From positions 10,171 to 74,170 of the forward strand of contig CAYZNI010000001.1 of assembly GCA_964479755.1 (NCBI GenBank): a DNA stretch of 64,000 bases. The letters are read 5' to 3'. The position numbers were made by a program, and so were the translations under genes. Every line of letters starts with the position of its first letter. Position 1 is the first letter of the stretch. The notes beneath the pieces were generated by a model. That model made no database searches. It worked only from the letters and a program-made list of their open reading frames with translations, and was not told the DNA's origin. The stretch is from Candidatus Woesearchaeota archaeon. Lineage in GTDB: Archaea > Nanobdellota > Nanobdellia > Pacearchaeales > GW2011-AR1. This document shows, one piece after another, positions 30,879 through 47,056 of the stretch.

Positions 30879-31226
30879 TTAAAAAATTATTTTTGGTAAA
30901 AAGAAAATAATATTATCAGTACTATAACTGTGTTTCAATTAAGAAAAAATCAAATATTTTTAAAAATTATAACAGAAAAAAATCAAATCAGAAAAAATGT
31001 AGTTACAAAATTATTATGGAGATATTGTAGTTAGTTTTTTTTAGATGAGTGGGCTGAAAAGAACTTTTGCGGTAAGCCCGAAGAGTAGCAAAATACTGAA
31101 GAAGGCAATTAGACCGAGGAGAATCCAGATAGTGATTACTTTTGCGCGACTTGCCTGCTTCACTCTTTTTTTCATACTATACTTGAGGGAAGTAATTATT
31201 TAAAATTAACTGAAACTGTTATATTG

Positions 31227-31334
31227 ATGCTAGTTGAAATGACTTTAGCGTTAATAGTTGGCATCATTTTAGGAAGTTTCAGCGGCAAACACGACACCAG
31301 TTTTCCAATAAAAACTCTCTTTTTCTAAAAAGCG
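31227..31334 (+). pseudogene. 35-codon fragment that mimics the N-terminus of the DUF112-like membrane-protein gene at 45648; putative att-associated displaced gene end.
   Basis: MLVEMTLALIVGIILGSFSG versus MIIELIIALLLGVTIGCFSG at 45648: 9 of 20 residues identical and the rest conservative. The fragment diverges and stops after 35 codons. Confidence 0.4.
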
Positions 31335-31376
31335 TAATCATTACGCTACAAATCATTTAAAATAGGAAAACTGAAA

Positions 31377-31862
31377 ATGTATATGGGAAGAGATAAAAAT
31401 AATCCGAGTATCATCTACATAAATTATCAGATAAGAAGTAATGGAAAAAAGATTAACATATTTGATAGGGTTAATCAGATAAAAACGGACATCAAAGTGC
31501 TTCTTCCTGAAATTGAGGATGATAAGTTGATTGGTATGTTCTCTCACATGAGAAGATATTACGAGGGGAAATTACATTATGGAAGAAGAACCAATCCAGA
31601 AAATTGGGATAAGAAACAAGATTTAACCGAAGCTGAAAGATTAATCTATGACTATCTTCTTAAAAATAAATTGAATCCTTCTACAACTTATAGGTGGATG
31701 CTGACCTGTAGAGTGCCTTCAGACATCAAAAGCAAGCTCATGGAAGGGAGATTATCATACAAGAAAGCTCTTTGGATAGCTTCAAACAGAAAGAGACAGA
31801 GAGAAAGCAATACGGGGCTTCTAATGATGGAAGAAATAAACAATATAGTAGCGAGCTTATAA
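31377..31862 (+). CDS. Hypothetical protein, possibly an N-terminal (core-binding) module of the adjacent integrase in another frame.
   Basis: 161-aa ORF. Its stop abuts the integrase start (taaaatg). Confidence 0.35.
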   Translation: MYMGRDKNNPSIIYINYQIRSNGKKINIFDRVNQIKTDIKVLLPEIEDDKLIGMFSHMRRYYEGKLHYGRRTNPENWDKKQDLTEAERLIYDYLLKNKLNPSTTYRWMLTCRVPSDIKSKLMEGRLSYKKALWIASNRKRQRESNTGLLMMEEINNIVASL

Positions 31863-31863
31863 A

Positions 31864-32751
31864 ATGGGAAATAAAAACAAACTGCCAGATATGCTAAGAA
31901 AAGAACAACTTGTAAAGCTGTTTGAATCTATAGACAGACCAAAATGTTCTATCGCTTGTTTTATTGCCTTGATGTGTGGATTAAGAGTTAATGAAGTTTG
32001 TAAACTTGAAATAACAAACATAGACTTAGAGAGAAGGATTCTCAAAATAAAGGATAGCAAAGACCCAAATAGAAAGAAGCATGGTGGATATGGAAAAGAC
32101 AGAATCGTGCCCATCCCAGAAATTGCAGTTTCTCCAATAAAAAAGTGGCTTGATATAATTCAAGGTGGAAAATGGTTTTTACCTTCTATGAAAAGCCCAG
32201 ACTTGCATTTAATGAAAAAAACACTGCACGAATGGTTTAGACAAGCAAGAAAGAGAGCAAATTTAGATGAAGTAGATTATGTTGTGAAATACAAAAAGAA
32301 AACATTACATAGAGAAAGCAGTCCAGTCTATAAAATAAGATTTCATCATTTCAGGCATTTCTATGCAACTTATGTTTATGAGAAAACCAGAGACCTCTAT
32401 GCCGTCGCTGATTTGCTTGGGCACAATCAAGTTACAACTACCCAAATTTATGCCAAGATTTCAGATAAAACCAAGAGGGAAACTATTGATTTTGCATTTA
32501 ATACGCCAATCAAAACAAGGATTTTCCAAGACAATCCTATCAATGCTCTCAACTACAAAATCCCAACTATCGCAAAGCAAAGAGAGAAATCTCCTATAGA
32601 AATCCTTGAAGAAAGATTCGCCAAAGGTGAGATTTCAGCAATAGACTTTCAAACAGCATTAAGATTGTTAAAAGTAAGAAAAGATTATCTTAGCGAAGAT
32701 AAAGACTCAGAAGAACCAAAGGAAAAAGAGATTGAAAACAGAGAAAATTGA
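31864..32751 (+). CDS. Tyrosine site-specific recombinase/integrase.
   Basis: Catalytic signature R...HxxR...H...Y: GLRVNEV, RFHHFRHFYATYV, LLGHNQVTTTQIYAKI. Confidence 0.8.
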   Translation: MGNKNKLPDMLRKEQLVKLFESIDRPKCSIACFIALMCGLRVNEVCKLEITNIDLERRILKIKDSKDPNRKKHGGYGKDRIVPIPEIAVSPIKKWLDIIQGGKWFLPSMKSPDLHLMKKTLHEWFRQARKRANLDEVDYVVKYKKKTLHRESSPVYKIRFHHFRHFYATYVYEKTRDLYAVADLLGHNQVTTTQIYAKISDKTKRETIDFAFNTPIKTRIFQDNPINALNYKIPTIAKQREKSPIEILEERFAKGEISAIDFQTALRLLKVRKDYLSEDKDSEEPKEKEIENREN

Positions 32752-32772
32752 ATTATTATTCAATTTACTGAA

Positions 32773-35700
32773 TTAAACCGCAGTAAAGACCACATTTCTG
32801 AAAACAGCATTTCCTGCGTCATCGGTAATTCTAATATTCAAATTATGATTTCCATCTCTGAAATAAATCTTCTTGTAACAGTTTCCGTTTTTCAGACTTG
32901 TGCACATTGAGTTCCATCTCGGTCTTGAGTCAGAATTGTCATAATACTCAACTTTATTGAAGTTTAATTCATTAATAGTCATATTGAAATAAGCATAGTT
33001 TCCGATTGTCCAATTAGTAAATTGAAGAACTTGAGGCGAAGTTGTATCAACCCTAATCCTTGTTGGTCTTGATTCGTCTTTATTTCCTGCAACATCTATA
33101 ATTGTGAATTGATATTCTACTTCTTTACCGTCAAATGAACTTATGTCCTGAGAGATAAATTTCTCAACATTTCTACCATTAGAACATTTGTTTGAGTTTA
33201 CAATAGTGCTCTGATTACTTCTAATTGTCAGATTCAAAACTACACAATTATCTTCGGTGTATTTAATGTAAAAGTCGCTCCCATTAGTATAGCCTCTACT
33301 TTGAGGTTTTGTTGTAGATATTTGAGGGTCTTTGCTGTCTATAAATAATTCGGTTTGATTAGTTACATTCTTTCCGCTTGGTAATATTCCCCTAAAGAAT
33401 AATACATGATTTCCATCACCTAATGTTTTCTTTTGTGCATACTTATTACAATTAGTGCATAATGAGGATTCTCTTCCCCCATTATCTGAATAAACCAATT
33501 TAACGAATTTATCTTGAGAGCTAAGATTAAACATAACACTTCTTTCATTGTATATTCCTGAATCGGGATTAATCAAGACTAAAGAAGGATTTACTACTGA
33601 GCAAGATTCTACTGCACGATATTCATAAACTGTCTTATTTGGAATCTCCCCGCAGTTATTAAAGTCTGATTGAACTAAGAACCTTGATTGATTCATAAAA
33701 TTATTTTGTAAGCAAGAAATATTCAACCAGTTGCTCCAAGAGGTATTCGCCATCTGGGGCTTACAGAAATCGCAAGTCTGATTTCTAAATTCCCAATAGG
33801 TTTTATTTAATCCATTATTCCAAAGGTCAGAAGACAAATTAGTGACTGTAAAACAGGTGCTATAATTAGAATCATACCCGGTTTTACTTCTATTTTGAAT
33901 GTAATAATCTCCAACTAAGCAAGAGGTTTGATTCTGCCATGTGCTCATAGTGGTGTTAACAATTTGAGGATTACAAAAATTGCAAGTTTCACTTGTTTGG
34001 TATTCAATAAAAGACTGATTTTGTATTAAACCACAATTATTAGAATCATATTGAATCCAATCCCGACTTTGATTAAGTTTATCGTTGATTAAGCAACTTA
34101 TATTTAACCAAGAAGATTTAGTAGTATTCTGCAAGAGCTGGTCACAAATAGCATTCTTTGTTTCAAGACTCACTAATGCTCCACTGCTCCAACAAATCTT
34201 AGTCCCCGAAGAGGTAGTTGTGCAACTTCCTTTGTTTAAATTGAAACCATTGTATACTATCTCCTTAAATTCATTTGTTTGTGAACAAGTAGGGACTATA
34301 TTTCCTGGGTCATTACAAACATCAGGGGTTTTTAGCTCAAGAGTTTTATTATCTAAATCTAAAATCCTGACATCATTTGAAGTTTGAGAAAATTGAGGGT
34401 CATACCTTATGCCTTCAGGTAAATCAGTAGGCAAGTTAATTGTATAGTTATATCTGATACACATTCCACCACAAGAAGAGGTCTTAATAGAAGAAGTAAA
34501 ATTTGTCTTGTTGATTGGTATGGTAGAATTTACAGGACTCCAACTTATTTCTTTCATAGTTGTTTGTGCTCCTTTAATTTCTATCTCAGAAGGATTTTTT
34601 TCTCCATTTATGTATATCTCATAATTTCCCTTAGGAAAAGTTAAACCATATTTCTGATTGTTATAATCTTGAGTGGGGTAATACATACTAAGATTATTAT
34701 CGCTAAAATAAAACCAATTATTTGTTTCAGAATTATGTCTTGAATCTTTGAATTTTGTAAGACCATAATAAATGTTGCTAACTTTATTTTTTAGTTTAAC
34801 TTCTCCAGCTGACTGGTTAGAATTAATTTTAAGGACAACACTGCCCCTACTAAAAACATTACTACTGGAATTTTGAGGGTCAATATAGAAATCTCCGCTA
34901 TCCAAATTAGATTTTATTACTTGAACACTATTTCCCCTAATAAAATCATCAATGATGTCTACTTCTTTGTGAACATCAACAGTGAAGAAACCTGTAAAAT
35001 CATTCCCTTTCTCATTTGCGTGGTTATAATCGTTTAAAATTACCAGTGGAATATTTTTATCAAGCAAACTTGCACTTGAAACCGCAACAAGCCCGTCATT
35101 ACCTGCTCCAGAATCTCCAGAATTAGATTCTTTAGTCTCATCAGGAACGCAAGGAATCCCTTGATTACCCGTTATTGCTAAGTAGCTTATTTGATTACTT
35201 AATGAATTTTTATTCAACAACCAAGTAAACTCACTTCCAACAGCGAGGTCAAGATATGCTTGAGCATATTCATCATCAGGAGTTATGCCCAACAGATTGG
35301 CAAGCCAGTTACAACCATAACTCGCTGGAGCAATGTCCATTAAAACTCTATTTGCTGAAAAAGAACCATGTAATGGTGAAGCAACAATAACATATTTTCT
35401 GATGTTATTATCGTATGGAATAGACGCTCCCCCAGAGCTCTTACCAAGACCTTCAATATATCCCAAAGTAACAAACCCCCCCATACTATGGGAGATAACA
35501 TCTAACTTAGAAACAGAATAATAACTAAGAACAATATTAATTTCATTCTTTAATAGTCCTGCCGTCATAAAATTGCTCGCATTTGCAGGGATATAATAAA
35601 GCTCCCAAACATCATAGTTATAATCTCCTAACTTTGAAGGGATATTATTCCAATAACCCCATGTAGAAGTGTCTCCAGTGTCTATTCCATCGCTTCCATG

Positions 35701-36603
35701 CAATCCATGAATCAGTAAGACGGGAGTTCTCTGAGAATTAAGTGAGTAATAACCCATGACTGCCGTTGGATATGTTGAATAATCTATTTCATAAGATTCT
35801 GGATATGAAGAGGCAGAAAAAGCTCTCATAGCCCTATTATTTGGTTGATACTCTTTAACATAACCTTCTACAAATCTTAGTTTTTCATCGGGCATTAATT
35901 GATATTCATTGCCGTATACTGAATAGAATAAATTTGGTTTAGAATCAACATTAGACCAGTATTCTACTGAAAATGTATAATTCCCCTTTTCTAAAAAAGA
36001 ATTGAAGGTATTGTTATATGAAATATTTGAGTCCATATTATCAAACATTGTCTTATTATTCATCAAAACTTTAGCCCTCCCAGTAATGTTCAAAAAGAAA
36101 GAGTAATTCGCATTGTCATCAATTACAATTTCACCAGTCCAAGAAACAAATCTGTCAGTAGAACTTAATATGAGTTCTTTTGGAACTTCAGGTGTCTTTA
36201 ATTCAGCATGCTTGGCACTTGTCTTTTCTGTTAAATAAATATTAATTAAACTATTTTTCTTAAAATCAGCATTTTTACTATCTATTTCCGATATTAAATT
36301 TGAATCCTTTTCAATCTCTGTTCTATAAATAACTCTCTTTGGAATGAGATTACATCCTTCAAAACAAAATAATTCAGTATTCAGGTCTATTGTTGAAGGT
36401 TGACTACTTCTAATATCCCTTACTATTTTTTCTCCAGTATTAAATTGATAAGATAAAACCAAATTCTCTCCAGACAATTTACTAAATGTTCCATTATTAT
36501 CTTTAACAAGATTCACAGTAGTATCAAAACTTGCACTTACAAAAGAAACATTCAAAATAACAATGAGTCCAAAAACCATAAGGAGGAGATTATAGAGCTT
36601 CAT
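32773..36603 (-). CDS. Giant secreted protein with an alpha/beta-hydrolase (lipase/esterase-like) module.
   Basis: 1276-aa ORF with a Sec signal peptide. GxSxG nucleophile elbow VISHSMGGFV. Many Cys and N-glycosylation sequons. Confidence 0.5.
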   Translation of the reverse strand: MKLYNLLLMVFGLIVILNVSFVSASFDTTVNLVKDNNGTFSKLSGENLVLSYQFNTGEKIVRDIRSSQPSTIDLNTELFCFEGCNLIPKRVIYRTEIEKDSNLISEIDSKNADFKKNSLINIYLTEKTSAKHAELKTPEVPKELILSSTDRFVSWTGEIVIDDNANYSFFLNITGRAKVLMNNKTMFDNMDSNISYNNTFNSFLEKGNYTFSVEYWSNVDSKPNLFYSVYGNEYQLMPDEKLRFVEGYVKEYQPNNRAMRAFSASSYPESYEIDYSTYPTAVMGYYSLNSQRTPVLLIHGLHGSDGIDTGDTSTWGYWNNIPSKLGDYNYDVWELYYIPANASNFMTAGLLKNEINIVLSYYSVSKLDVISHSMGGFVTLGYIEGLGKSSGGASIPYDNNIRKYVIVASPLHGSFSANRVLMDIAPASYGCNWLANLLGITPDDEYAQAYLDLAVGSEFTWLLNKNSLSNQISYLAITGNQGIPCVPDETKESNSGDSGAGNDGLVAVSSASLLDKNIPLVILNDYNHANEKGNDFTGFFTVDVHKEVDIIDDFIRGNSVQVIKSNLDSGDFYIDPQNSSSNVFSRGSVVLKINSNQSAGEVKLKNKVSNIYYGLTKFKDSRHNSETNNWFYFSDNNLSMYYPTQDYNNQKYGLTFPKGNYEIYINGEKNPSEIEIKGAQTTMKEISWSPVNSTIPINKTNFTSSIKTSSCGGMCIRYNYTINLPTDLPEGIRYDPQFSQTSNDVRILDLDNKTLELKTPDVCNDPGNIVPTCSQTNEFKEIVYNGFNLNKGSCTTTSSGTKICWSSGALVSLETKNAICDQLLQNTTKSSWLNISCLINDKLNQSRDWIQYDSNNCGLIQNQSFIEYQTSETCNFCNPQIVNTTMSTWQNQTSCLVGDYYIQNRSKTGYDSNYSTCFTVTNLSSDLWNNGLNKTYWEFRNQTCDFCKPQMANTSWSNWLNISCLQNNFMNQSRFLVQSDFNNCGEIPNKTVYEYRAVESCSVVNPSLVLINPDSGIYNERSVMFNLSSQDKFVKLVYSDNGGRESSLCTNCNKYAQKKTLGDGNHVLFFRGILPSGKNVTNQTELFIDSKDPQISTTKPQSRGYTNGSDFYIKYTEDNCVVLNLTIRSNQSTIVNSNKCSNGRNVEKFISQDISSFDGKEVEYQFTIIDVAGNKDESRPTRIRVDTTSPQVLQFTNWTIGNYAYFNMTINELNFNKVEYYDNSDSRPRWNSMCTSLKNGNCYKKIYFRDGNHNLNIRITDDAGNAVFRNVVFTAV

Positions 36604-36908
36604 TTTTGTTTCCTTGAAAAGAGTTTAGCAATAAAATAGACTAACAAAAAATAAATCAAAGAATTAAGCAAAATTGCTATAATAGAAAGTCCAATATTTT
36701 TATAGATTGCGTCCGTATGAACTACTAAGTAAAGTAAAAGAGCACTTGGAAAATTTATCAAAACAAACAAAATATTTGTTGTACATACTGAACCAAAAAA
36801 TCCTCCTGCAAATTGAACAATCCTGCAAGGCAAAATTAAGAATATAACGGATAAAATAATGAATAGAATTACAAAAATTAAAGATATTCTTGCACTTGTC
36901 TTTTCCAT
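36600..36908 (-). CDS. Small membrane protein.
   Basis: 102-aa ORF with three hydrophobic helices. It overlaps the upstream giant gene by 4 nt. Confidence 0.4.
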   Translation of the reverse strand: MEKTSARISLIFVILFIILSVIFLILPCRIVQFAGGFFGSVCTTNILFVLINFPSALLLYLVVHTDAIYKNIGLSIIAILLNSLIYFLLVYFIAKLFSRKQK

Positions 36909-36974
36909 ATAATTACCATATTATTGATAATTATAAAGCTATCTGCAAAAAAGATGTTCGCTTTAAGTAGTAAA

Positions 36975-37241
36975 TCAAAGTGTAGAAACTTTTGATAATA
37001 TTTTCTTTCCGTAAGGGGTTATAACATATAACTTACCCTTATTAGCATCGGGAGTTAAACATTCAACAAATTTCTTTGCTTCTAATTCTGCCAATGCTCT
37101 ACTGATATGTGCAATGTTAATGTTTATTTCTTTGCTTAATTTAGAAGGGGTTTGAGGAAAAACTAACTTCTCTAAAACCTTTTTCCTATATTCGCTTGAA
37201 ATTATAAAACTTACATCTTGCCAATTTATTTCCTTATCCAT
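36975..37241 (-). CDS. Winged-helix DNA-binding protein.
   Basis: 88-aa ORF with a helix-turn-helix and beta-wing pattern: INIAHISRALAELEAKKFVECL...GKLYVITPYG. Confidence 0.45.
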   Translation of the reverse strand: MDKEINWQDVSFIISSEYRKKVLEKLVFPQTPSKLSKEININIAHISRALAELEAKKFVECLTPDANKGKLYVITPYGKKILSKVSTL

Positions 37242-37316
37242 ACCTTAAAATGACGAAAAGCTTATATAGGGGTATTTACCATATTGTTACCATATAATTA
37301 AGACAGCTTTGACAAA

Positions 37317-38039
37317 ATGGCTAAGAAAACAGAAAATAATAAGGAAATCTCCCCTGTCAAAAAGAGTTCTAAAGGAATTTATATCTTAGTAGGGATAATC
37401 GCTGTAGTTGTAATAGTTTTGTTAATTGCTTTTCTAAATAGCAGTTCAATGACTGGCAATGTTATAAATACCAATTCCGAAGCTGGACAAAATCAAGAAG
37501 TAAAACAAACATGCAAGGATGTTCAAGTTCCATACGATTATCTTGAAGAATATCAAGAAACCGTTCCTTATACAGATACTGTTTGTGATGCTAAGGTCTT
37601 AGTATACAGCAGAGGCAGTTTTGATTTGGTTTCCTCTGTATGTAACCAACAGGTAGAAGAATGCCAAAAATATGTTCTTGGTTTTTGCACAAGCAAAATT
37701 ACTTATTGCACAGATAGAACCATAACTTGTTCTTTAGGTATTAACAACCTTGATGACGAAAGAGGAATTTGGCAGGTTAATTTCAATTTCTTTAAATCAG
37801 GCTCAAGTAATGTAGAAGCAACAGCTTCTCAGTCTCGTGGACTTGACCCGCACTCATCTGGAACTGCTATCGGTCAAGGAGAAATTACTTCAAAAGAGTT
37901 ATATGACACCCAATACACTTGTAGTTATGTCATTAGTAATGAACCTACAAAGCAAGTTTGTAGAGATGTTACAAAATACAAAGAAGTTACAAAAACAAGG
38001 ACAGTAACACGGTATAGAACTGAAAATAAGTGCGAATAA
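37317..38039 (+). CDS. Membrane-anchored cysteine-rich protein.
   Basis: 240-aa ORF with an N-terminal TM helix and multiple Cys residues in the ectodomain. Confidence 0.4.
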   Translation: MAKKTENNKEISPVKKSSKGIYILVGIIAVVVIVLLIAFLNSSSMTGNVINTNSEAGQNQEVKQTCKDVQVPYDYLEEYQETVPYTDTVCDAKVLVYSRGSFDLVSSVCNQQVEECQKYVLGFCTSKITYCTDRTITCSLGINNLDDERGIWQVNFNFFKSGSSNVEATASQSRGLDPHSSGTAIGQGEITSKELYDTQYTCSYVISNEPTKQVCRDVTKYKEVTKTRTVTRYRTENKCE

Positions 38040-38105
38040 ATTCTTAGCCCTATTAGGCTACATTTGAGCTACAAGCGTTAAAAATAAGTCTCCTCTTTTT
38101 AGTCT

Positions 38106-38582
38106 ATGAGAACTAAGGGAGCAAGAGATACAAAAAAGAGAAAGGCAAGAAAAGATAGAAAATATAAGTATAGATATAAAAGAGGAAAATTTCAACCTTA
38201 CTTTCCAAAGAGAAATAGAAGCGACCCTGTAAAGATATGGTGGTGGTCAATAGAACCAATGAGTAAAGATGCCTATAAAAGATTCCCACCACATCTAAGA
38301 GCGATTATTAGAAAAACCGTTTTTAAAAAATCTATTAGAGTAGATGTCTTGCCAATAAAGTTATCAAACAAGAGAGAGATTGAAGACCTTGCTCTTGACA
38401 CATTAGGAACAACAGGATATTTCTATTTGATGATGTTTTGTAAAAGAAAAAATCAATTTGGAGTTAGCCCTGTAAAAACTGCAAGTGTTATGATAACAGA
38501 CTCCCCAGAAGGACTAAAGGCAAAATTCATACAAAATTTTAGACTCTATCGTTACTGGTTTTGGGAGGAGAGAAGAAAATGA
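38106..38582 (+). CDS. Highly basic hypothetical protein.
   Basis: 158-aa ORF with a K/R-rich N-terminus (KKRKARKDRKYKYRYKRGK). Confidence 0.3.
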   Translation: MRTKGARDTKKRKARKDRKYKYRYKRGKFQPYFPKRNRSDPVKIWWWSIEPMSKDAYKRFPPHLRAIIRKTVFKKSIRVDVLPIKLSNKREIEDLALDTLGTTGYFYLMMFCKRKNQFGVSPVKTASVMITDSPEGLKAKFIQNFRLYRYWFWEERRK

Positions 38583-39295
38583 AATCTTGCATATATTGCC
38601 GTGTTTCTGTTGATGATGTGAAAAATCCAAGAGATTCAATAAAAACTCAAGAGAAGGTATGTAGAGAAAGAGCAAAAGAAAAAGGTGACGAAGTTATAGA
38701 AGTTTATCAAGACATCAATAAAAGCGGAGGCTCTCTTAACAGACCTCAATTAAGGAGATTAATTGAAGATGCAAGACAAGACAAATTTTCAGCAGTTTAT
38801 ATTATGAATTTTAGCAGATTAAGCAGAAAAATCAAAGACCAAGAAACTCTTATTGATGAAATGGAAAAATTAGGTATTAAATTTATTTCAGCAGACGGAA
38901 CAGAGGATAAAACCATAAGACAAATTACTGGAGTGATGAACGAATATCAAAGAGATTTCTTTAGAAAACAAACAGAAATTGAGCATCAAACAAGATTAAA
39001 AGAAAAGATTGCCTTGAACAGACCCCCAACAGGATATAAAATTGACAGCAAAGAAAAATATTTTATTATTGACAAAAAGAAAGCTGAGCTGATAAAAAGA
39101 ATTTTTGAACTAAGGCTTCAAGGAAAAGAAATAAAAGATATTGCTAAAGAAACAAAAATCTCTTTTCAAACAGTAAAAAATATTCTACAGAACAAAACTT
39201 ATATTGGGTTTAACAAATATAGAAATGAGTGGATTGAAGGAAAGCATCAAGCAATAATCACTAAGGAGGTTTTTGAAAAATGTCAAAGAATCTAA
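38579..39295 (+). CDS. Serine recombinase (resolvase/invertase family).
   Basis: N-terminal catalytic motif MKSCIYCRVSVDD. Also GGSLNRPQLRRLIEDA and NFSRLSRK. The ORF track begins at a TTG at 38561; the ATG at 38579 is preferred. Confidence 0.7.
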   Translation: MKSCIYCRVSVDDVKNPRDSIKTQEKVCRERAKEKGDEVIEVYQDINKSGGSLNRPQLRRLIEDARQDKFSAVYIMNFSRLSRKIKDQETLIDEMEKLGIKFISADGTEDKTIRQITGVMNEYQRDFFRKQTEIEHQTRLKEKIALNRPPTGYKIDSKEKYFIIDKKKAELIKRIFELRLQGKEIKDIAKETKISFQTVKNILQNKTYIGFNKYRNEWIEGKHQAIITKEVFEKCQRI

Positions 39296-39822
39296 TTTCT
39301 TCTCCCCCAAGCATTTATCAGCTATATCTTAGAAAGCTGGGAGCTTTTGGAAGTTCTATATTTGGAAATGATTTATACTTCTTAAAAGAATTTGTTGATT
39401 TGGGAATCCAAGACTTCGGAGAGGAAAGAGTTATAGAAATGTTGAGAAATGACAATAGTCCAAATAGCAAAAGATGTAAAGAAATCGCTGAAAATTGGGA
39501 GGATGTTAAAAGAGATTTTAGGATATTTGATATTCGTTTAACAAGAGCAAAAGGATTTTATGATAAAATAGAGAAAAAAGATTTTTCAAAGATAAATGAT
39601 AAAGATGTAGAAGAGTTTATGGGATATTCAAAAAGGATTTCTTTTATAAAAGAAGATATTTACACCTTAGCAATTTTTCTGATAAGAAATAGCCCATTAC
39701 AAAAACAAACAATTCCGAGCGAAGCATGGAAAGTCTTAGAACACTCTGGACTTAAAAAATTAGAATCGGGGAATAAAACACCTCAGCCACTAAACACTGA
39801 ATCTTCAGGAGGAGAAAATTGA
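39280..39822 (+). CDS. Hypothetical protein carried by the element.
   Basis: 180-aa ORF that overlaps its neighbours. Confidence 0.3.
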   Translation: MSKNLISSPPSIYQLYLRKLGAFGSSIFGNDLYFLKEFVDLGIQDFGEERVIEMLRNDNSPNSKRCKEIAENWEDVKRDFRIFDIRLTRAKGFYDKIEKKDFSKINDKDVEEFMGYSKRISFIKEDIYTLAIFLIRNSPLQKQTIPSEAWKVLEHSGLKKLESGNKTPQPLNTESSGGEN

Positions 39823-40190
39823 GAGTCATTCAACAACTGCTCATTAAGATTATGAGTCTTCACGAAGAATTTGATTTTCGTAATTATGAGCTAAGGTCAA
39901 TCTGGCATTTTTACAAATGTTATAATCTTGCTATAGTGATACTTGGAAAAGAAGACCCTAACATTCATTGTAAAAACCATTTATGGAAAAGAATTGTGGA
40001 GTCTCAAATTGAAGGCGAGATTAATGTTAAAGCATACACAAGACTGAAGAATTTTATGAGAAATGATTTTGCAGTAATAAGTGAGGCAATTAAAGAAATT
40101 TCAAGAGAAAATGAAGAGCTTGGATATGATGAAGGAGATTTATGGACTCCTAATGCTCTGGCAGTTCAGTTTATGGAGGTAGAAGACTAA
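39819..40190 (+). CDS. Hypothetical protein carried by the element.
   Basis: 123-aa ORF with overlapping start and stop junctions. Confidence 0.3.
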   Translation: MRVIQQLLIKIMSLHEEFDFRNYELRSIWHFYKCYNLAIVILGKEDPNIHCKNHLWKRIVESQIEGEINVKAYTRLKNFMRNDFAVISEAIKEISRENEELGYDEGDLWTPNALAVQFMEVED

Positions 40191-40191
40191 C

Positions 40192-41793
40192 ATGGATTTA
40201 AGATACCATAACGGTTGTTTAAAAGTATTTCTTACCGATAAAACTAAAAGGATTCCTCCAGAGCAATGGGGGATTTATGCAACTACAGGATATGGAAAAT
40301 CTCTTTGTGAAGAGGGAATAGTTGAGGCTTATTTTAATGCAGGATTTATAGTTATTTACTTAGGTGATGGAATGAAGGGCGAGGAAGAAGGTTGTTACGC
40401 AATGTTTGAACCTGAAGAAAGGTATCATTTAGCCTTACTAAAAAAAGAGGGCAAGCGTCCAAGAAAAGTAGATGTTAAACTATATCATCCATTCACATTT
40501 AATATCCCAAATAACTCAATTCCGAATTATAACTTTTTTACAATACCAATTAAGAGTTTAGGTAGAAGAGATTTTTCTATGTTAGCAGAAACTCAAGCAG
40601 ACTCAGACACAATTAGAATATTATTACAAGCATCACAGAATCTTTCAAAAGAGGGAGGAGTCTATCAATTGCTCCACGACATACAAACATTAATCAAAGG
40701 AAAAAGAAAAGATGATTCAGTTTCACCATCTCAGAATAATTTCTATCTCTCTGTAAGCTCTGGAACAGCCAAGAGTATGCAAGATATTAGTAATTTATTT
40801 CAAGCATTCAAAAAAGATTATTTTTTAGTTAAAGAGAATTGTGAATTTACTCTTGATATGAAAAAGATTCTTTCAGACAATAAGAGCATTCATTTCTTCT
40901 CAACAAAATATCTAAGAGACCCGAAGATAAAAGAGTTTGTCCTTTTGGTAGTCTTGAATAAAATCTTAGAAAATAAAGATTACGCAAAACATCCAGTTTG
41001 TATAGTAATTCCTGAAATTAGAAGATTATGTCCAGACAAAGCTATCGGCTATCAAAAATTTCTTAGCGAAGCTATTAAAGAAGCCTTATCCACAATGCGT
41101 TCACAGGGTCAAGGAGGATTTGCTTCTATACTCTCTTCTCAAAGTTGGAATGACACAGAGCAAGGAGTCAGAGATTCTCACAGCATTACATTATTAGGAA
41201 AATTGAACATAAATGACATAGATAAAATAAGTAAAGTCTTAGGATATAATAGAGAAAGAAGATTAGAATTAGCAAATCCTCCCGCATCTAATTCTTGGCT
41301 TCAGATTGGTAGAGAAGGTTTAGACTGGTGGCACTATTTTGCACCAAGCTGGTGTCATGCAGAACCTGAATATAAATTTGAAGAAATGTTCAAAAAATAC
41401 TATCCTGAAAAAATGAATAAATATTCAGAAACAATAAACTCCATGAAATCAATACTTAATGATGAAGAAGCTAAGTTTAAAGAGAAAGCAAAAAGAGAAG
41501 AAGAGGAAGAAAGGAAAAGGCATGAGCAAAAGAAAAAAGAACGAGAGCAGAGAATAGGCAACAATTCAAGTCAAGATGTAAAGCAAAGGGAGAAGGAGTT
41601 CAAAGAGCAGGGAAAGATAAAGGATATGGAAAGAGCTCAAAGAATGAGGGAAGAAGGGTTAACCCTAATAGATATTGCTAATAAGCTCGGAACTTCAAAA
41701 GACACTGTTAGAAGATGGCTACTGAAGTATGAGCAGATGAAGAAAGAACAAGAGCCAGAATTATCAAACCCCTCAACAGAAGATAAGGTATGA
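40192..41793 (+). CDS. P-loop NTPase with a K/E-rich coiled coil and a C-terminal HTH; HerA/FtsK/VirB4-like DNA-translocation or transfer ATPase (inference).
   Basis: Walker A GIYATTGYGKSL. C-terminal HTH LTLIDIANKLGTSKDTVRRWL. Confidence 0.45.
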   Translation: MDLRYHNGCLKVFLTDKTKRIPPEQWGIYATTGYGKSLCEEGIVEAYFNAGFIVIYLGDGMKGEEEGCYAMFEPEERYHLALLKKEGKRPRKVDVKLYHPFTFNIPNNSIPNYNFFTIPIKSLGRRDFSMLAETQADSDTIRILLQASQNLSKEGGVYQLLHDIQTLIKGKRKDDSVSPSQNNFYLSVSSGTAKSMQDISNLFQAFKKDYFLVKENCEFTLDMKKILSDNKSIHFFSTKYLRDPKIKEFVLLVVLNKILENKDYAKHPVCIVIPEIRRLCPDKAIGYQKFLSEAIKEALSTMRSQGQGGFASILSSQSWNDTEQGVRDSHSITLLGKLNINDIDKISKVLGYNRERRLELANPPASNSWLQIGREGLDWWHYFAPSWCHAEPEYKFEEMFKKYYPEKMNKYSETINSMKSILNDEEAKFKEKAKREEEEERKRHEQKKKEREQRIGNNSSQDVKQREKEFKEQGKIKDMERAQRMREEGLTLIDIANKLGTSKDTVRRWLLKYEQMKKEQEPELSNPSTEDKV

Positions 41794-42297
41794 TAAATAA
41801 ACTCCTCACTTTTACATTCGGCAAAGCCATAGGGGGTCAAATGTTTAGAGAACTATTTTTGATAACTGTAAATATGGGGTCACTTATTTCACAGCTACTT
41901 TTCCTATTATAATAGTTTATAGTCGTCATAATCCCAAAAGAAGGAGCAGTCGTTAATCACTTTAAAATAAAAAATATTTTTCTCACTTCTCATCTACCAG
42001 TAGGTGCACCTGCAATTTTCAGATGATTAAGAATATAAGCAATGTTATTGACTTAAAATAAAAAATAAAATTCTCAATGACTTTTTATGATATGATAATT
42101 ATGTAATGCAGAGGGCTGAACTTTTTTGTGCAATTCAAACAATCTTCTTTATTTCTATTCCTTTCAAATAATTAGCAAGTTCTATTCCTGCCATTATAAC
42201 CCTATCCTCATAGTTAGTGAGAGCCTTAATCTTCTCAAAAGTTAATCCATCCCAATAATAGAATAAAGCAGACTGGAGGACATCAATAAAATATTCT

Positions 42298-43683
42298 TTA
42301 TCCATTTTTAAGAACCTCTGCTATTTTAGATTTAGTGAAGTCAATCATAACTTCGGGCATTATTTCTTTTAGGCTCTTTTTTGTTTTAATGTCTTCACTA
42401 CCTTTAGTATCTCTTTCTTTTATTGGTGTTAAAGGTATTAAAGGTTCTAAAGCTGGATAACCTTCTAAAGATACTAAACTTTTCTTGCATAATTCTTCAA
42501 ATGTTGGAATTTCTAATCGTTCATTAGGATTATATGCTTTTGACAAGGAATAAACCTCAATATCCCTATTCCAACTATCTGTATCAGTTTCTGTTTGTAA
42601 AATTCCATACTTAACTAATATTCCGAGATTTGTTTGAAGAGCAGGCAAAGAAACAAAATTCATCTTTGAAGAATGCAGTTGAGAAACTGACCCTAAAAGA
42701 TTTGGTTCTTTTTCAAATATTTCTAAAATCTTTTTTTGATTGATTGTAAGAGGAATCATATATTTATTTGAACATAACTTCAAAAAACATTCTCTCGCAA
42801 TATCATAATCCTGCCCATTTGCCAATACATAACCCTCCTTATCCCTTTTTCTCTGATATTGATGAAAACCTGCACTTGCAGAAATAAAGTCAAGGTATCT
42901 GGGATAATGCGTTCTCATAATAATATTCTTAGTAGGAAAATGGGGGTCTATAGAATCTGCAAAGGGAATCTTTACCTTAACTCTCTTCAAAAATCTCATT
43001 GAGTTAGTATATTTATTGTCATACTCTGGCACGATTCCTCTTTTCTTAAATTCAGAATGCCTTTTCATTATTGCCTTTGTCTGGTCTTCGGAGCTATCTA
43101 AATTTAAAATAACAAACCTTCGGGATAATTCAAGATTTGGCGTTGAGCTTGCAGTAGTTGTTATCATAACAGGTTTTCCATTTATTTCTATATCTATTGC
43201 TCTCTGTTTAATTGTAATTGTTGCAGAGCTTCCTTTAGAGCACATTACTTTAAAGACATCCGAGTTCAACACAGACTCAGAAATATCTTCAGGATAGAAA
43301 ACCTTACCATCCCAAGTCCAGTCGGGCTCATAAGTAGAATTGTGCCAGTAAGTAAAAACCGTAGGGCTAATTCTTGTTTTATGGACATAAACTTCTTTTG
43401 GCAAAATATCTAAAACTGCTCCCGCAACATAATCTTTTCCAATACCTGCATCATCATTTATCAAAAGATTATATGAAGCAATTTGAGCATTTTCTATAAG
43501 TCGTCCATTTGAACACAAGAAGATTACTTTCCTTGTTTCAACCTCTCCAACTATTTTTTTATCAAACTCGTTTTCAGTTATCTCCTTAAACAGATTAGGA
43601 TTAGTTAAAACTTCCATTACTTCGGCTGGAGGCTCATCAGCCTTTTTCAATATAGCATCAACATTATTCTTTTCAATTTTCAT
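42298..43683 (-). CDS. Replication protein C-terminal module: D5/SF3-like helicase with an atypical Walker A.
   Basis: NDDAGIGKDYVAGAVLDILPK resembles the D5 P-loop G.G.nGKStf..ll..lG, with S replaced by D. It is translationally coupled to the upstream prim-pol ORF. Confidence 0.4.
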   Translation of the reverse strand: MKIEKNNVDAILKKADEPPAEVMEVLTNPNLFKEITENEFDKKIVGEVETRKVIFLCSNGRLIENAQIASYNLLINDDAGIGKDYVAGAVLDILPKEVYVHKTRISPTVFTYWHNSTYEPDWTWDGKVFYPEDISESVLNSDVFKVMCSKGSSATITIKQRAIDIEINGKPVMITTTASSTPNLELSRRFVILNLDSSEDQTKAIMKRHSEFKKRGIVPEYDNKYTNSMRFLKRVKVKIPFADSIDPHFPTKNIIMRTHYPRYLDFISASAGFHQYQRKRDKEGYVLANGQDYDIARECFLKLCSNKYMIPLTINQKKILEIFEKEPNLLGSVSQLHSSKMNFVSLPALQTNLGILVKYGILQTETDTDSWNRDIEVYSLSKAYNPNERLEIPTFEELCKKSLVSLEGYPALEPLIPLTPIKERDTKGSEDIKTKKSLKEIMPEVMIDFTKSKIAEVLKNG

Positions 43684-44146
43684 ATTGAATCAACTCCTTC
43701 ACCTTTCCACTTTTCCAGTGAGGTGCAAACTCAAGAGCAATCATGTGTCTATTAGAAGCCAGTTGAGTATCTGCAAGAAAATGCTTTATCACCTTTAGTT
43801 TCTCTTCTTGTGAAAGATTCTTATTATAGAAAGTATGGACATGGTAGCCTCTTGAACCCGTGCTGAAAACATAGAAAATAATCTTTAATTCTTTAAGCTC
43901 TTTAACAGTTAAAGGTAATCTTTCTTTGTCTTCAAAATCAAGGACAATTTCAAAAGGAAGTATCTGCCTTTGATTGACCTTTGATAAAAACCATTTATTC
44001 CATCCATTTTCAGAATCAAAACAAACCTCAGAATATTTCTTTCTTTTGCTCTTCTTCCCATCTTTTTCTAAGATTTGAAGTTCAAAATCACAATTCTGCC
44101 CTCCTAAATCATAAAAGAGATAAGAAAGCCAATTCTCTTTATCCAT
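43673..44146 (-). CDS. Primase-polymerase (archaeo-eukaryotic primase fold, prim-pol) domain protein.
   Basis: Motif I LDFED, motif II STGSRGYHVH, and a motif III-like stretch DTQLASNRHMIALEFAPHWKSGK. Confidence 0.5.
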   Translation of the reverse strand: MDKENWLSYLFYDLGGQNCDFELQILEKDGKKSKRKKYSEVCFDSENGWNKWFLSKVNQRQILPFEIVLDFEDKERLPLTVKELKELKIIFYVFSTGSRGYHVHTFYNKNLSQEEKLKVIKHFLADTQLASNRHMIALEFAPHWKSGKVKELIQYEN

Positions 44147-44310
44147 TATTTAATCCTCCTAAAATCTCAATCCTTAAAATCTTCAATAGAAGGATTGCTT
44201 CAATATGTGAATTTATCTTCAGAAAAATGTGAGTGGAAGTATATCCATCTAAAACTCCTGTTTTCTTTGAGGGATATTGCCCACCATCATCATAAATAAC
44301 CTTGAGGGTT

Positions 44311-44568
44311 TTATTTATGTGTTTTTTCCATTCTTGTTCTTGTTCCATTTTTTCCATTTGATTCATTTCCAATTATTTCCAAAATTTTATTGAGTTTTAT
44401 TTCCACAGTAGGAGCTTCAAAAATTCGGGAGCGGATATATTCACTCAGGGTCTTTCCTGCTTGTTCTGCAAGAAAATCAAGTCTCTGTCTTTGAGTCTTT
44501 GTGAGCCTACAACGAACTTCCCTTAGCTCTTTCTCTTGAGGAAATTGCATTTGATTATCTTCCATCAT
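44311..44568 (-). CDS. Ribbon-helix-helix (CopG/Arc-like) DNA-binding protein.
   Basis: VRCRLTKTQRQRLDFLAEQAGKTLSEYIRSRI has the RHH beta-alpha-alpha pattern. Confidence 0.5.
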   Translation of the reverse strand: MMEDNQMQFPQEKELREVRCRLTKTQRQRLDFLAEQAGKTLSEYIRSRIFEAPTVEIKLNKILEIIGNESNGKNGTRTRMEKTHK

Positions 44569-44731
44569 TTTTCACCTCTAATCTTTTTGAGTTTGAAATG
44601 ATTTCTTTTGCCTTTTCCTGACAAGCCAGTCTAACAAAGTTGGCAATACTTCTTTGCACCTTTTCAGACGCCTCTTTAACTAAGTTAAATTCCTCTTCAT
44701 TAAAGTCGGCAGATAATTTTTTGTAGCTCAT
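44555..44731 (-). CDS. Second small RHH-like protein of 58 aa; not in the ORF track.
   Basis: MSYKKLSADFNEEEFNLVKEASEKVQRSIANFVRLACQEKAKEI. Its stop overlaps the start of the downstream RHH gene. Confidence 0.3.
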   Translation of the reverse strand: MSYKKLSADFNEEEFNLVKEASEKVQRSIANFVRLACQEKAKEIISNSKRLEVKNDGR

Positions 44732-44865
44732 TTTCTCTTATTTTAAGAGATAAGGCAAGTATTTAAATCTTTCCTTTTATCTTATTTTAAGAGAGAAGAT
44801 ACGCCTTTCAGATATTATCTCTTATTTTAAGATAAATTTAAATACTCTTTTCTCTTAAATTCTAA

Positions 44866-45432
44866 ATGGTAAGAGAAAAGGATTATAATTTTATTATGGG
44901 GAACAAAACCCGAAGAGAAATATTAAACTTGATTGAAAACAAATCTCTAAACGCAAGTCAAATAAAAGAAACTCTTAAACTAAGTAGTTACGGTCTTCTA
45001 TACCAGCATCTAAAAGTCTTGGAAGAAGTAGGAATTATAACAAGGCAACAAATAAAAGATGAGGCAGGAAAGAAAAAACAAGGGAGAGAGACAAAAATAT
45101 CAATCAACACCAAAGGACTAAATAGATTCATGAAAACTCAGGGAATCCTGCCTGATGTAGAAATAGATGAAAAAATCTTGAGGGATATTCTAAAATTTTT
45201 ATCTACGAAAGAAGAACCTGTCTCCTTTTATGAGATTGTAGATAGTATCCATCCTCAAAATAAGAAAACAAAATATGAAGATTTTATAGGAGAAGTCCAA
45301 GCCCTAATTATGGATTTTCCAGAACTTTTTATGTATAAGATAAGCAAAGAAGGAATAGAAAATTTGAATAAAAATTCAAAATTAAAACATAAAAACCCAC
45401 AAAAAACAACCCAAAGTATCAAAACATCATAA
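44866..45432 (+). CDS. Winged-helix (ArsR-like) transcriptional regulator.
   Basis: NKTRREILNLIENKSLNASQIKETLKLSSYGLLYQHLKVLEEVGII. Confidence 0.45.
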   Translation: MVREKDYNFIMGNKTRREILNLIENKSLNASQIKETLKLSSYGLLYQHLKVLEEVGIITRQQIKDEAGKKKQGRETKISINTKGLNRFMKTQGILPDVEIDEKILRDILKFLSTKEEPVSFYEIVDSIHPQNKKTKYEDFIGEVQALIMDFPELFMYKISKEGIENLNKNSKLKHKNPQKTTQSIKTS

Positions 45433-45647
45433 AAAACATGTAAAATAGTTCGGGAATGCAAATAAAATTAAGAGCTTTCCGACGGGGGATGTGGATTATT
45501 GGAATAAAAAGGAAAATAACCTATTGGGCAACCAAAATTAGCAATGAAAAATCAAAAAATCAGCAAAGTTTATATAGAAGCACCACTTCATAGTTTTAGA
45601 AAAATAGAGTTAGTTTATCGTCGGAAAAACTGACATCGGAGCATACG

Positions 45648-46862
45648 ATGATTATTGAATTAATCATTGCTTTATTGCTCGGGGTCACCATAGGGTGTTT
45701 TAGCGGCGTTTTTCCAGGAATACATATTAACCTTGTTGCGGCTGGGCTTTTAGCTTTGATAGGCAGGGGATATTTAGAGGGAATTGCGCCGATAGTGCTT
45801 GTGGCCTTTATTGTGGCGATGGCGATAACGCACACATTTATTGATTTTATTCCTTCGATATTTCTGGGTGCGCCTGAAGAAGATTCTTTTCTTGCTGTTT
45901 TGCCAGGACATGAACTTTTGAAAAAAGGCAAGGGTTTTGAGGCAGTTGTGGCGACGCTTTATGGCTGCGTTGCGGCGCTGCCATTTGTGCTATTATTTAG
46001 TTTTGTTTTTGTGATTTTTTTGCCAGTTGCTTATGAGTACTCGAGGATGGTTTTGCCGTTTATTTTGATATTTGTCTCACTTTTTCTAATATTCAGGGAG
46101 GAAAGATTTCATGTTGCGTTGCTTGTGTTTATTTCTGCCGGAGTTTTGGGTCTATTGACATTTAATTTACCTGTAAAAGAGCCGCTGATGCCTCTATTGA
46201 CTGGCTTGTTTGGAATTTCATCATTGTTAGTGAGCATGAAAGACAAAGTTAAAATTCCAGAACAAAGAGTCATAAGTTTTTGGAAAATTAGGCCCGACAG
46301 AGGGTTTTTGAAAAGTTTCTTGGCAGGAGGGCTTGTTGCACCGTTCTTTTCATTTCTTCCGGCGATTGGAAGCGGACAGGCGGCGGTTGTGGTGAGCGAG
46401 ATTTCAGGGAAGAGCGAGAAAAATGAGAAGAGCTTTTTGTTTTTGGTTGGAATGATAAATGTAATGGTGATGTCGCTGTCGTTTGTCACTCTGTTTTCGA
46501 TTTCAAAAGGCAGGACCGGAGTTGCTGTTGCTGTAGGCAAGATATTGAAGGAGTTTACTTTGAGCGATTTGGTATTGGTTTTATTATTTGTTTTTTTATC
46601 CGCAGTTAGCGCATTTTTTGCCGGAATAATGATGGGGAAGTTTTTTGCAAATAAAATTTCTAAGCTGGATTATAGGAAAGTTTCTGTTGTCGTAATCGGG
46701 GTCTTATTTGTTGTTAACCTGATATTGAGCAATTTTGTCGGGCTAATTCTGCTTTTGACAGCTTCTGCATTGGGCGTGTTTTGCATTCTTTCGGGGGCGA
46801 GAAGGATTAATTTAATGGGGTGTTTGTTGATTCCGACGATTGTTTATTATTTGAGCGCGTGA
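45648..46862 (+). CDS. Polytopic membrane protein, DUF112/TctA-like.
   Basis: 404-aa ORF with about 10 TM helices. The N-terminus MIIELIIALLLGVTIGCFSGVFPGIH resembles TctA-family N-termini. The element-border fragment mimics its first 20 codons. Confidence 0.4.
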   Translation: MIIELIIALLLGVTIGCFSGVFPGIHINLVAAGLLALIGRGYLEGIAPIVLVAFIVAMAITHTFIDFIPSIFLGAPEEDSFLAVLPGHELLKKGKGFEAVVATLYGCVAALPFVLLFSFVFVIFLPVAYEYSRMVLPFILIFVSLFLIFREERFHVALLVFISAGVLGLLTFNLPVKEPLMPLLTGLFGISSLLVSMKDKVKIPEQRVISFWKIRPDRGFLKSFLAGGLVAPFFSFLPAIGSGQAAVVVSEISGKSEKNEKSFLFLVGMINVMVMSLSFVTLFSISKGRTGVAVAVGKILKEFTLSDLVLVLLFVFLSAVSAFFAGIMMGKFFANKISKLDYRKVSVVVIGVLFVVNLILSNFVGLILLLTASALGVFCILSGARRINLMGCLLIPTIVYYLSA

Positions 46863-46984: not shown

Positions 46985-47056
46985 GGCCTCATAGTCTAGT
47001 GGTTAAGACGTACCCTTGACGTGGGTGAGTCCCCAGTTCAATTCTGGGTGGGGCCA
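46985..47056 (+). tRNA. tRNA-Val (anticodon GAC).
   Basis: Cloverleaf folded by hand. Acceptor stem GGCCUCA/UGGGGCC; D arm GUCU/AGAC; anticodon stem UACCC/GGGUG with loop UUGACGU; T arm CCCAG/CUGGG with loop UUCAAUU; discriminator A. No encoded CCA. Confidence 0.8.

Follow-up and report, generated by a model that had tools for sequence, protein, structure and literature searches.

A plasmid-like element probably integrated at the 5′ end of a TctA-like gene in a DPANN archaeon brings a replacement gene start

We analyzed a stretch of 64,000 nucleotides (nt) from a Candidatus Woesearchaeota archaeon (assembly GCA_964479755.1, contig CAYZNI010000001.1, positions 10,171 to 74,170 of the forward strand), which is called the window below. 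An insert of 14.4 kb, at window positions 31287-45707, separates the original start of a TctA-like membrane protein gene from the rest of that gene. With a probability of about 0.87, we believe that the insert is a plasmid-like element integrated site-specifically at codons 18-20 of the gene, and that it supplied both a promoter and an imitation of the first 20 codons. Read from this imitation (45648-46862), the TctA-like gene is complete: its product matches PF01970 (E 8.6e-41) over residues 6-390, covering profile positions 1-422 of 423, and its closest database relatives (52-79% identity) are found in genomes labelled Candidatus Pacearchaeota, Nanoarchaeota, or archaeon, which places the host among the DPANN archaea, as one of Pacearchaeota type. 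An original prediction, made by a model from the letters of the window, had proposed an integrated plasmid- or provirus-like element at this place, bounded by a duplicated gene start. The coordinates of all features are listed in Table 1.

A start of the TctA-like gene is present at each border of the insert. On the left, the open reading frame (ORF) beginning with ATG 31227 starts with MLVEMTLALIVGIILGSFSG and has 33 codons, its stop codon lying at 31326-31328, rather than the 35 codons ending at 31334 that had been predicted. Aligned in register with the start at 45648-45707, it agrees in 9 of 20 residues and 38 of 60 nt. Beyond the 20 codons only 11/60 nt are the same downstream and 27/100 nt upstream. 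The likeness breaks off sharply at TTyAGCGGC, inside which the exact hexamer AGCGGC forms a direct repeat at both borders (31281-31286 and 45702-45707). A position matrix was made from residues 1-20 of 95 other TctA homologues and scanned over all six frames. Within the window it scored 49.7 bits at 45648 and 36.9 bits at 31227, with no third match above 17 bits, and in 555 kb of other loci no match reached 22 bits except at a TctA gene or at this integrase module. Several points of the original prediction are borne out by the matrix and by the nucleotide alignment of the two borders, which had been suggested as a check: the left fragment does mimic the first 20 residues of the TctA-like gene, the nucleotide sequences of the two starts have diverged, and the candidate core t[ct]agcggc is found within TTyAGCGGC at both borders. 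A tRNA gene as the target was considered and rejected. A tRNA-Val gene (46985-47056) lies just 3′ of the TctA-like gene, yet the borders contain no partial copy of either of the two tRNA genes of the window.

Inspection of related genomes revealed the site without the insert. The closest relative of the window protein (P0002, 79% identical) is encoded at locus L001 by an uninterrupted gene. The 110 nt upstream of its start agree with the left flank of the insert at 86 positions (78%), as against 40/96 for the right arm of the element, and from codon 21 onward 70/90 nt agree with the window from 45708 onward. As the flanks of L001 match on both sides, the junction can be placed at the end of codon 20. 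The 20 codons alone do not discriminate between host and element (L001 shares 40/60 nt with attL and 39/60 with attR); the flanks do. In L002-L005 (TctA-like protein 66% identical) the genes for a beta-helix protein, the TctA-like protein, a 44-aa ORF, and proteins of 620 and 645 amino acids (aa) follow one another with no 14-kb insert, and their equivalents in the window lie at 27072-30878, 45648 on, 47555 on, 47652 on, and 49567 on. On long contigs, another three TctA loci were free of an integrase over the 10 kb upstream; the DNA of two of them (L172-L175) contains one TctA start only, which makes these unoccupied sites. Altogether the site is empty in L001-L005 and L172-L175 and occupied in the window, in L006-L011, and in many metagenome loci, and no deletion scars were seen at the empty sites. 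Uninterrupted loci in relatives had been named as a check of the original prediction, as had the composition of the insert, and both agree with it. The GC content of the whole window is about 38%. The insert has 32.3%, compared with 38.3% for the rest of the window, and lies below all 42 host windows of the same size. Its tetranucleotide distance of 0.259, compared with 0.073-0.097 for host windows, is about three times that of any of them.

The two starts can be assigned to host and element with the help of a relative of the whole element. Element A of locus L006 comes from a metagenome-assembled genome labelled Woesearchaeota that was obtained in a different study, and shares with the window element ORF161 (94% identity), the integrase (78%), a ribbon-helix-helix (RHH) protein (58%), and an ArsR-type regulator (34%). 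Positions 45400-45707 of the window, which comprise the end of the regulator, the TTTATATA box, and the 20-codon start, match the right arm of element A at about 93% of nucleotides. This likeness ends at the core, where the window continues into the host TctA-like gene and L006 into the left arm of a second element. The left arms of the window, L006, and L092 are in turn nearly identical from about 31301, some 14 nt past the core, into the start of orf161; their host flanks are unrelated. Because the right arms are about 93% identical up to the core and the left arms are shared, the start at 45648-45707 and its promoter travel with the element, and the start at 31227-31286 is that of the host. 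The comparison supports the view that 31227-31286 represents the displaced original start and 45648-45707 the replacement brought by the element. That the element supplies a new gene start and pushes the original one to the other border had been predicted, and it agrees with both the empty site of L001 and the arms of L006. The replacement is nearer to the consensus of the TctA family than the displaced original (49.7 vs 36.9 bits), and several displaced stubs in other loci lack a start codon or the conserved residues, which is consistent with selection on the imitation and decay of the stub. The original promoter has a leaderless-type geometry and would now drive the stub only, facing the recombinase operon, while the promoter of the right arm is predicted to drive the TctA-like gene. 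The left arm contains a perfect 8-1-8 palindrome, AGCGTAAT-C-ATTACGCT, at 31331-31347, which is kept in L006 and L092 and is a candidate protein-binding site.

The association with the TctA 5′ end is a property of a large family. The integrase of the window element has more than 220 close homologues at 59-82% identity, confirmed metagenome stretches number at least 387, and 6 genome loci together with 80 metagenome loci were taken for comparison. We treated as evaluable those loci with an integrase at least 45% identical and with sufficient upstream sequence. They number 38, although their independence is somewhat overstated by L006/L092 and L010/L114, which are near-identical element copies from different datasets. 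These loci come from Pacearchaeota, Woesearchaeota, and Nanoarchaeota. In 30 of the 38, orf161-int is preceded by a complete TctA start of 20 codons that runs into junk or stops at once; the start is cut by the contig end in three and is a shortened in-frame start of about 8-15 codons in five. The core codons are F/I/L-T-G (...TG) in all 38 loci, with the consensus TTCACAGGC coding F-T-G. The module is always downstream of the core, and the gap between core and orf161 is 89-90 nt in most members.

The five short-start junctions (L093:9300-9345, L094:40-70, L104:1345-1380, L117:1120-1155, and L102:7-66) have the form (M/V/L)Y...(F/Y)TG. In L093 and L117, element-type genes flank the core on both sides, and a 95-aa ORF spans the core in L093. 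They could represent the attP sites of elements in the free state, junctions within a tandem, or variants with a truncated first TctA helix.

Other occupied loci reveal what happens at the site over time. A second complete example, L007, has its attL at 9376 and its attR at 20583, the latter joined to an intact TctA-like gene; the element measures 11.2 kb and its borders share a 9-bp core, ACAGGCTTA. L006:9366-20882 is a tandem of two different elements, in which the host stub (9366) is followed by element A, a mimic at 20477, and a second orf161 with an identity of only 54%. Evidently the junction rebuilt by one integration served as a target again. L165:4154-9332 is a decayed array with TctA starts at 4154, 6705, and 8133; the third is that of the intact gene, and between it and the second are found one orf161 and an integrase remnant (residues 4-62). 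Old insertions would thus seem to shrink in place and leave start-codon stubs behind. TctA targeting is a property of one clade, since a more distant clade of the module (33-36% identity) lacks the TctA stub and has another conserved region upstream. The loci of that distant clade, L132-L147 (e.g. L133:9560-9670 and L142:9480-9600), carry a strongly conserved leader of about 90 nt, TTTATAsWTTCTGCAT...GTGAGCC...GCCATGGAGGTGGCA, which is preceded by a CACT..AGTG palindrome and adjoins a tRNA in two loci only. This leader could be another att site, a dif-like site, or a structured leader.

As predicted, a tyrosine integrase with the HxxR...H...Y signature lies just inside the left border (PF00589, E 2e-25, residues 11-201). 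The recombinase assignment stands, with the correction that the gene belongs to a two-gene module with orf161. R41, K78, H161xxR164, H187, and Y196 are invariant among 27 integrase homologues. The protein has no N-terminal core-binding (SAM-like) domain: its catalytic domain begins at residue 11, and XerA and XerD align only from about their own residue 100 on. The best solved relatives are the archaeal XerA structures 4a8e and 5hxy, alignable only from their residues ~100-135 on, and the XerA model NF040815 gives 103.6 bits against a cut-off of 220, over profile positions 90-261 of 263 only. At the other end, residues 244-269 match a SHOCT-like motif (PF09851, E 1e-4). This motif, an unusual appendage on a tyrosine recombinase, is also precomputed for many of the integrase homologues, and the tail may be an oligomerization element. 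A second tyrosine recombinase consisting of the catalytic domain only (165 aa, PF00589, E 7e-22) is encoded at L093:766-1263, on the same contig as a family member.

The genes orf161 and int are translationally coupled, with a stop-start gap of 1 nt in the window and a 1-nt overlap in other loci. Since their frame relation varies between loci, a frameshift fusion is excluded. The homologues of ORF161 include 145 close ones, and the protein falls in no Pfam or PHROG family; among 1.84 billion cluster representatives, a profile search picked out 177 relatives only, nearly all of 90-210 aa and stand-alone. From its position we regard it as a putative DNA-binding or accessory subunit of the recombinase. 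The integrase ORF is intact in the integrated state, as the core at 31278-31286 lies upstream of orf161, about 580 nt 5′ of the integrase gene.

These observations indicate a probable route of integration. The right arm of attP would hold a promoter followed by 20 codons that imitate the TctA start and end in the core TTyAGCGGC. This core would recombine with the same core in the host gene (attB) by conservative site-specific recombination, with the cleavages falling within or next to the core, most likely catalyzed by the tyrosine recombinase of the element together with its co-translated 161-aa partner. The imitation would thereby be joined in frame to host codon 21, and an intact TctA-like protein would be expressed from the promoter of the element. 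At the other border, the original promoter and the first 20 codons would remain as a stub directed into the recombinase operon. The rebuilt junction should again be usable as a target, which would explain the tandem and decayed arrays found elsewhere. The copy in the window may itself be mobile.

Several observations weigh against this interpretation. The exact identity of attL and attR is only 6 bp in the window, which is short for a core; identities of 6-9 bp are nevertheless in the range of the overlap regions of tyrosine recombinases. No general dyad symmetry was detectable round the core over 29 junctions, where the best arm complementarity equals that of shuffled controls. A dyad of 6 bp in the reconstructed attP of the window, GTGTTT-TAGCGGC-AAACAC, was accordingly discarded, the 29 junctions averaging 4.41 and the shuffles 4.35. 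Neither an excised circle nor an attP junction of the window element was found, and the family contigs tested have no terminal overlap. A model of faithful replacement leaves the five short-start members unexplained. The fold of ORF161 matches nothing significantly, its function being proposed from gene order, and the replication genes of the element were identified by weak similarity.

Other explanations of the locus have to be compared with integration of a plasmid-like element. That the two TctA starts reflect chance, compositional likeness, or a local duplication, and that the 14 kb is ordinary chromosome, might be suspected, as both starts code for a hydrophobic helix and are only 63% identical in nucleotides. 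The lack of a third such segment in the window or in the 555 kb, the empty sites, the arms kept in another genome, and the foreign composition make this explanation barely conceivable. The exact core of only 6 bp would suit the serine recombinase (38561-39295) as the integrating enzyme, with the tyrosine recombinase serving another purpose, as very short cores are typical when large serine recombinases integrate into protein-coding genes. The serine recombinase is, however, encoded in only 2 of 18 elements that share the att site, and its 244-aa form corresponds to the N-terminal half of large-serine-recombinase profiles, whereas every element has the tyrosine recombinase module, at a fixed distance from the core. 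We consider its involvement in the integration highly improbable.

The nature of the element is a separate question. It might be a provirus whose virion genes are hidden among the unannotated ORFs, the ATPase being a packaging enzyme and the secreted and membrane proteins parts of a virion. Proteins of archaeal viruses are often unrecognizable, eight ORFs of the window have no homologue in other elements (most of them also no family), and one of the genes codes for a P-loop ATPase with a Walker A motif. Searches against PHROGs gave no structural, terminase, or portal match, at a sensitivity that is low for novel archaeal virion proteins. IMG/VR contained no close relative of the integrase (best full-length match 26%), the integrase is at most 28% identical to proteins of GenBank phages, and the sister elements carry restriction-modification systems or a biosynthetic cluster and no virion genes. 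No virion gene having been recognized, the term "provirus-like" in the original prediction finds no support, and we think a provirus unlikely. It is also doubtful that the TctA-like gene is subject to a regulatory switch formed by the element, which would control a host function, possibly DNA uptake, for its own benefit by exchanging the promoter (and, in some variants, shortening the first helix), with native control restored on reversible excision. The whole promoter and 5′ end of the gene are indeed replaced, an ArsR-type regulator of the element lies directly upstream and reads towards the gene, and short-start variants exist. A TctA-like protein is essential for transformation in two methanogens (PMC10133366), and SpyCI at the 5′ end of mutL offers a bacterial precedent for a switch (PMC3430984). 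The proteins of DPANN archaea and methanogens are, however, linked by shared PF01970 membership only. In addition, the imitation keeps the conserved residues better than the displaced original, and this higher score suggests selection to keep the TctA-like protein working rather than to alter it.

Table 1 Features of the integrated element and its borders in the window (ORF, open reading frame; HTH, helix-turn-helix; RHH, ribbon-helix-helix; nt, nucleotides; aa, amino acids)
Feature	Coordinates	Strand	Description
Original host promoter region of TctA	31197-31226	+	TATA-like TTATTTAAAA ~26 nt before ATG; putative function
attL stub	31227-31328	+	Displaced host TctA codons 1-20 (31227-31286), then 13 junk codons from the element and stop
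attL core	31278-31286	+	TTCAGCGGC; codons 18-20, F-S-G
Element left arm	31287-31376	+	90 nt; T-run 31320-31324; TATA-like TTTAAAATA 31356-31364
ORF161	31377-31862	+	161-aa helical protein, no known family; putative integrase partner
Tyrosine integrase	31864-32751	+	295 aa; catalytic domain only, with SHOCT-like C-terminal tail
Secreted 1276-aa protein	32773-36603	-	Signal-like N-terminus; weak Lipase_2, PA14, and Big_13 (Ig-like) matches
102-aa membrane protein	36600-36908	-	No family
Winged-helix regulator	36975-37241	-	HTH_45 above its cut-off; homologues in L099 and L108
240-aa membrane-anchored Cys-rich protein	37317-38039	+	No family
ORF158 and short serine recombinase (38561-39295)	38106-39295	+	Resolvase E 3.5e-25, Recombinase E 9e-13
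Two ORFs, 180 and 123 aa	39280-40190	+	No assigned function
P-loop ATPase	40192-41793	+	Walker A ATTGYGKS; C-terminal HTH (HTH_23 E 9e-5); DUF87 E 1.3
Putative replication module	42298-44146	-	Candidate prim-pol 43673-44146 overlapping 461-aa P-loop NTPase 42298-43683
Two overlapping RHH proteins, NikA-like and TacA-like	44311-44568, 44555-44731	-	Library matches
Three 27-nt direct repeats	44728-44838		Palindromic TCTCTTATTTTAAGAGA core; 40-44 nt spacing; between divergent RHH operon and ArsR-type gene
ArsR-type HTH regulator	44866-45432	+	HTH_20, HTH_5; last element gene, points towards TctA
Element right arm with putative replacement promoter	45433-45647	+	TTTATATA box 45569-45576; GGAG 45638-45641, 7 nt before ATG
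attR mimic	45648-45707	+	20-codon TctA-start imitation brought by the element, reads MIIELIIALLLGVTIGCFSG
attR core	45699-45707	+	TTTAGCGGC; end of mimic
Host part of TctA-like gene	45708-46862	+	Codon 21 to stop; in frame with mimic, giving an intact 404-aa protein

Apart from orf161 and int, which are the only genes common to the 16-18 elements compared, the content of the elements is a mosaic. In the window element, the serine recombinase, the RHH pair, and the winged-helix regulators named by the original prediction agree with the profile matches. Its "lipase-like" secreted protein has the predicted 1276 aa and is 31-34% identical to a protein of element L099; the Lipase_2, Big_13, and PA14 matches behind that description are weak. 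The serine recombinase covers only profile positions 5-255 of 542 of CcrB and 4-274 of 465 of XisF, and thus lacks the C-terminal half of a large serine recombinase with its zinc ribbon and coiled coil. Together with ORF158 it forms a pair found in 2 of 18 elements, and it is likely a resolvase rather than an integrase. An RHH protein occurs in six elements, and a homologue of the ArsR-type regulator lies at the same position in L006. The 27-nt repeats are candidates for an operator or for replication iterons.

The ATPase and the replication genes had been predicted as a HerA/FtsK-like ATPase with an HTH and a primase-polymerase (prim-pol) with a D5-like helicase. The HTH and the Walker A motif are present in the ATPase, which has no match among GenBank phages; its DUF87 match (E 1.3) is a hint of likeness to HerA/DUF87. 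The prim-pol assignment likewise draws on weak matches, to LigD_Prim-Pol (E 0.048) and AEP-TOTE (E 0.056), and homologues of the protein in L096 and L119 are fused proteins of 609-697 aa. Over 300 aa, the 461-aa NTPase is 26% identical to the C-terminal P-loop part of a Toprim primase-NTPase fusion from a bacterial plasmid (pairwise E 2e-18). This resemblance is what was found for the putative D5-like helicase of the prediction. A PDB sequence search with the 461-aa and 533-aa proteins returned nothing informative.

The sister elements carry quite different genes. The cargo of L007 (11127-19084) is an acyl-lipid-type biosynthetic cluster with an acyltransferase, a phosphopantetheinyl transferase, a ketoacyl synthase III (KAS III), a fatty-acyl reductase, and a methyltransferase, and it includes no replication genes. 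The interiors of L009, L010, L107, and L108 hold restriction-modification genes (type I and type III-like) together with DNA methylases and DUF4238, and SET and GNAT proteins are encoded in L006. Judged by gene content, the window element would therefore be an integrated plasmid-like element, and the family would consist of integrative elements or islands that share one integration module.

Outside the element, the beta-helix surface protein encoded upstream of the insertion site (27072-30878) measures 1268 aa in the window and 889 aa in L002. Its roughly 400 extra residues (about 29115-30311) coincide with a dip in GC content to 30.5%.

Replacement of the 5′ end and promoter of a protein gene by an element has been described for the dusA-associated integrases of Proteobacteria (Farrugia et al. 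2015, PMC4482086). The dusA islands resemble the window family in having a dedicated tyrosine-integrase family, one conserved 5′ site in a housekeeping gene, and a distribution over hundreds of genomes, as well as a look-alike 5′ end with promoter, a remnant of the original at the other border, and variable cargo. They are bacterial, target dusA, and use a separate integrase family, for which the sections of that report considered here describe no partner protein. The window family has a DPANN host, a TctA-like target whose first transmembrane helix is replaced, and a recombinase without N-terminal domain that is accompanied by ORF161. The window element is hence of the dusA-island type by behaviour only, in that a new 5′ end and promoter are supplied and the original is left as a remnant. 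The original prediction had called a 5′ protein-gene target unusual; it is rare rather than unprecedented, as the dusA islands show. SpyCI of Streptococcus pyogenes also occupies the 5′ end of a gene, mutL, and its promoter affects downstream expression; there expression is interrupted as a growth-phase switch (PMC3430984), whereas here the coding sequence is restored in frame.

Archaeal systems provide further parallels. In the SNJ2 system of haloarchaeal pleolipoviruses, the genes of a tyrosine integrase and of small accessory proteins, which integration requires, are co-transcribed, and the module is common to diverse integrated elements (Wang et al. 2018, PMC5861418). That system has a tRNA-Met target, a 14-bp core, and two small accessory proteins (PMC5861418), compared with one 161-aa upstream partner and a protein-gene 5′ target here. 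The chromosome-dimer resolvase XerA is the closest solved and curated relative of the integrase catalytic domain. Its N-terminal DNA-binding domain of about 100 aa is absent from the window integrase, which scores below the XerA equivalog cut-off, and XerA acts at the dif site, while the window integrase is encoded inside a mobile insert and would act at a gene start. The SSV-type "suicidal" integrases of Crenarchaeota and Thermococcales are likewise archaeal tyrosine integrases encoded by elements; according to PMC7253208, their attP lies within the integrase gene, which is split on integration, whereas here the gene stays intact and attP is about 580 nt upstream. Elements of Thaumarchaeota share with the window family the use of protein-gene targets, the demonstration by comparison with empty sites, and tandem reuse of a site, but all 14 of their protein-gene integrations are 3′-distal (Krupovic et al. 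2019, PMC6563490), in contrast to the replaced 5′ end and promoter found here. Archaeal integration targets in protein genes are known in general, but are few and untested (PMC8371274). A non-exhaustive search of full-text literature on mobile elements of DPANN archaea, on TctA as a target of integration, and on integration at 5′ ends found no description of the DPANN family, of the TctA target, or of the recombinase architecture. The principle is established for bacteria; what appears to be undescribed is this archaeal family, along with its target and its split recombinase module.

The residues at codons 16-27 of TctA-like proteins (G-T-x-T-G-L-F-P-G-I-H-I-N) are highly conserved across the lineage, and this stretch may offer a target comparable to tRNA genes. 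In the methanogens Methanococcus maripaludis and Methanoculleus thermophilus, a TctA-like protein is the one membrane transporter that natural transformation has been found to require. It is a proposed DNA transporter and, as in archaea generally, lacks TctB and TctC partners (PMC10133366). The window protein and the methanogen protein (MMJJ_13030 type) belong to the same Pfam family, and the link is established at that level only. A speculative extension, to which we give little credence, is that the element family takes over the promoter and first helix of the TctA-like gene to control or blunt DNA uptake by its DPANN host. If true, this would be an archaeal counterpart of bacterial mobile elements in competence genes, and the short-start variants would be its disabling form.

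The family described here represents a widespread and easily recognized integration system of DPANN archaea with a precisely mapped target. To our knowledge, the mobile elements of DPANN archaea are otherwise almost unknown. Its signature, a TctA start stub followed by 90 nt and orf161-int, delimits islands in fragmentary DPANN genomes, where a single site collects replicons, restriction-modification systems, and biosynthetic clusters. The integrase is a natural tyrosine recombinase from which the usual N-terminal DNA-binding domain is missing and which has a separate novel protein as its partner, and the module is a candidate tool for site-specific integration in lineages without a genetic system. 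As the target belongs to a family tied to archaeal DNA uptake, the elements may also provide a testable link between mobile elements and competence.

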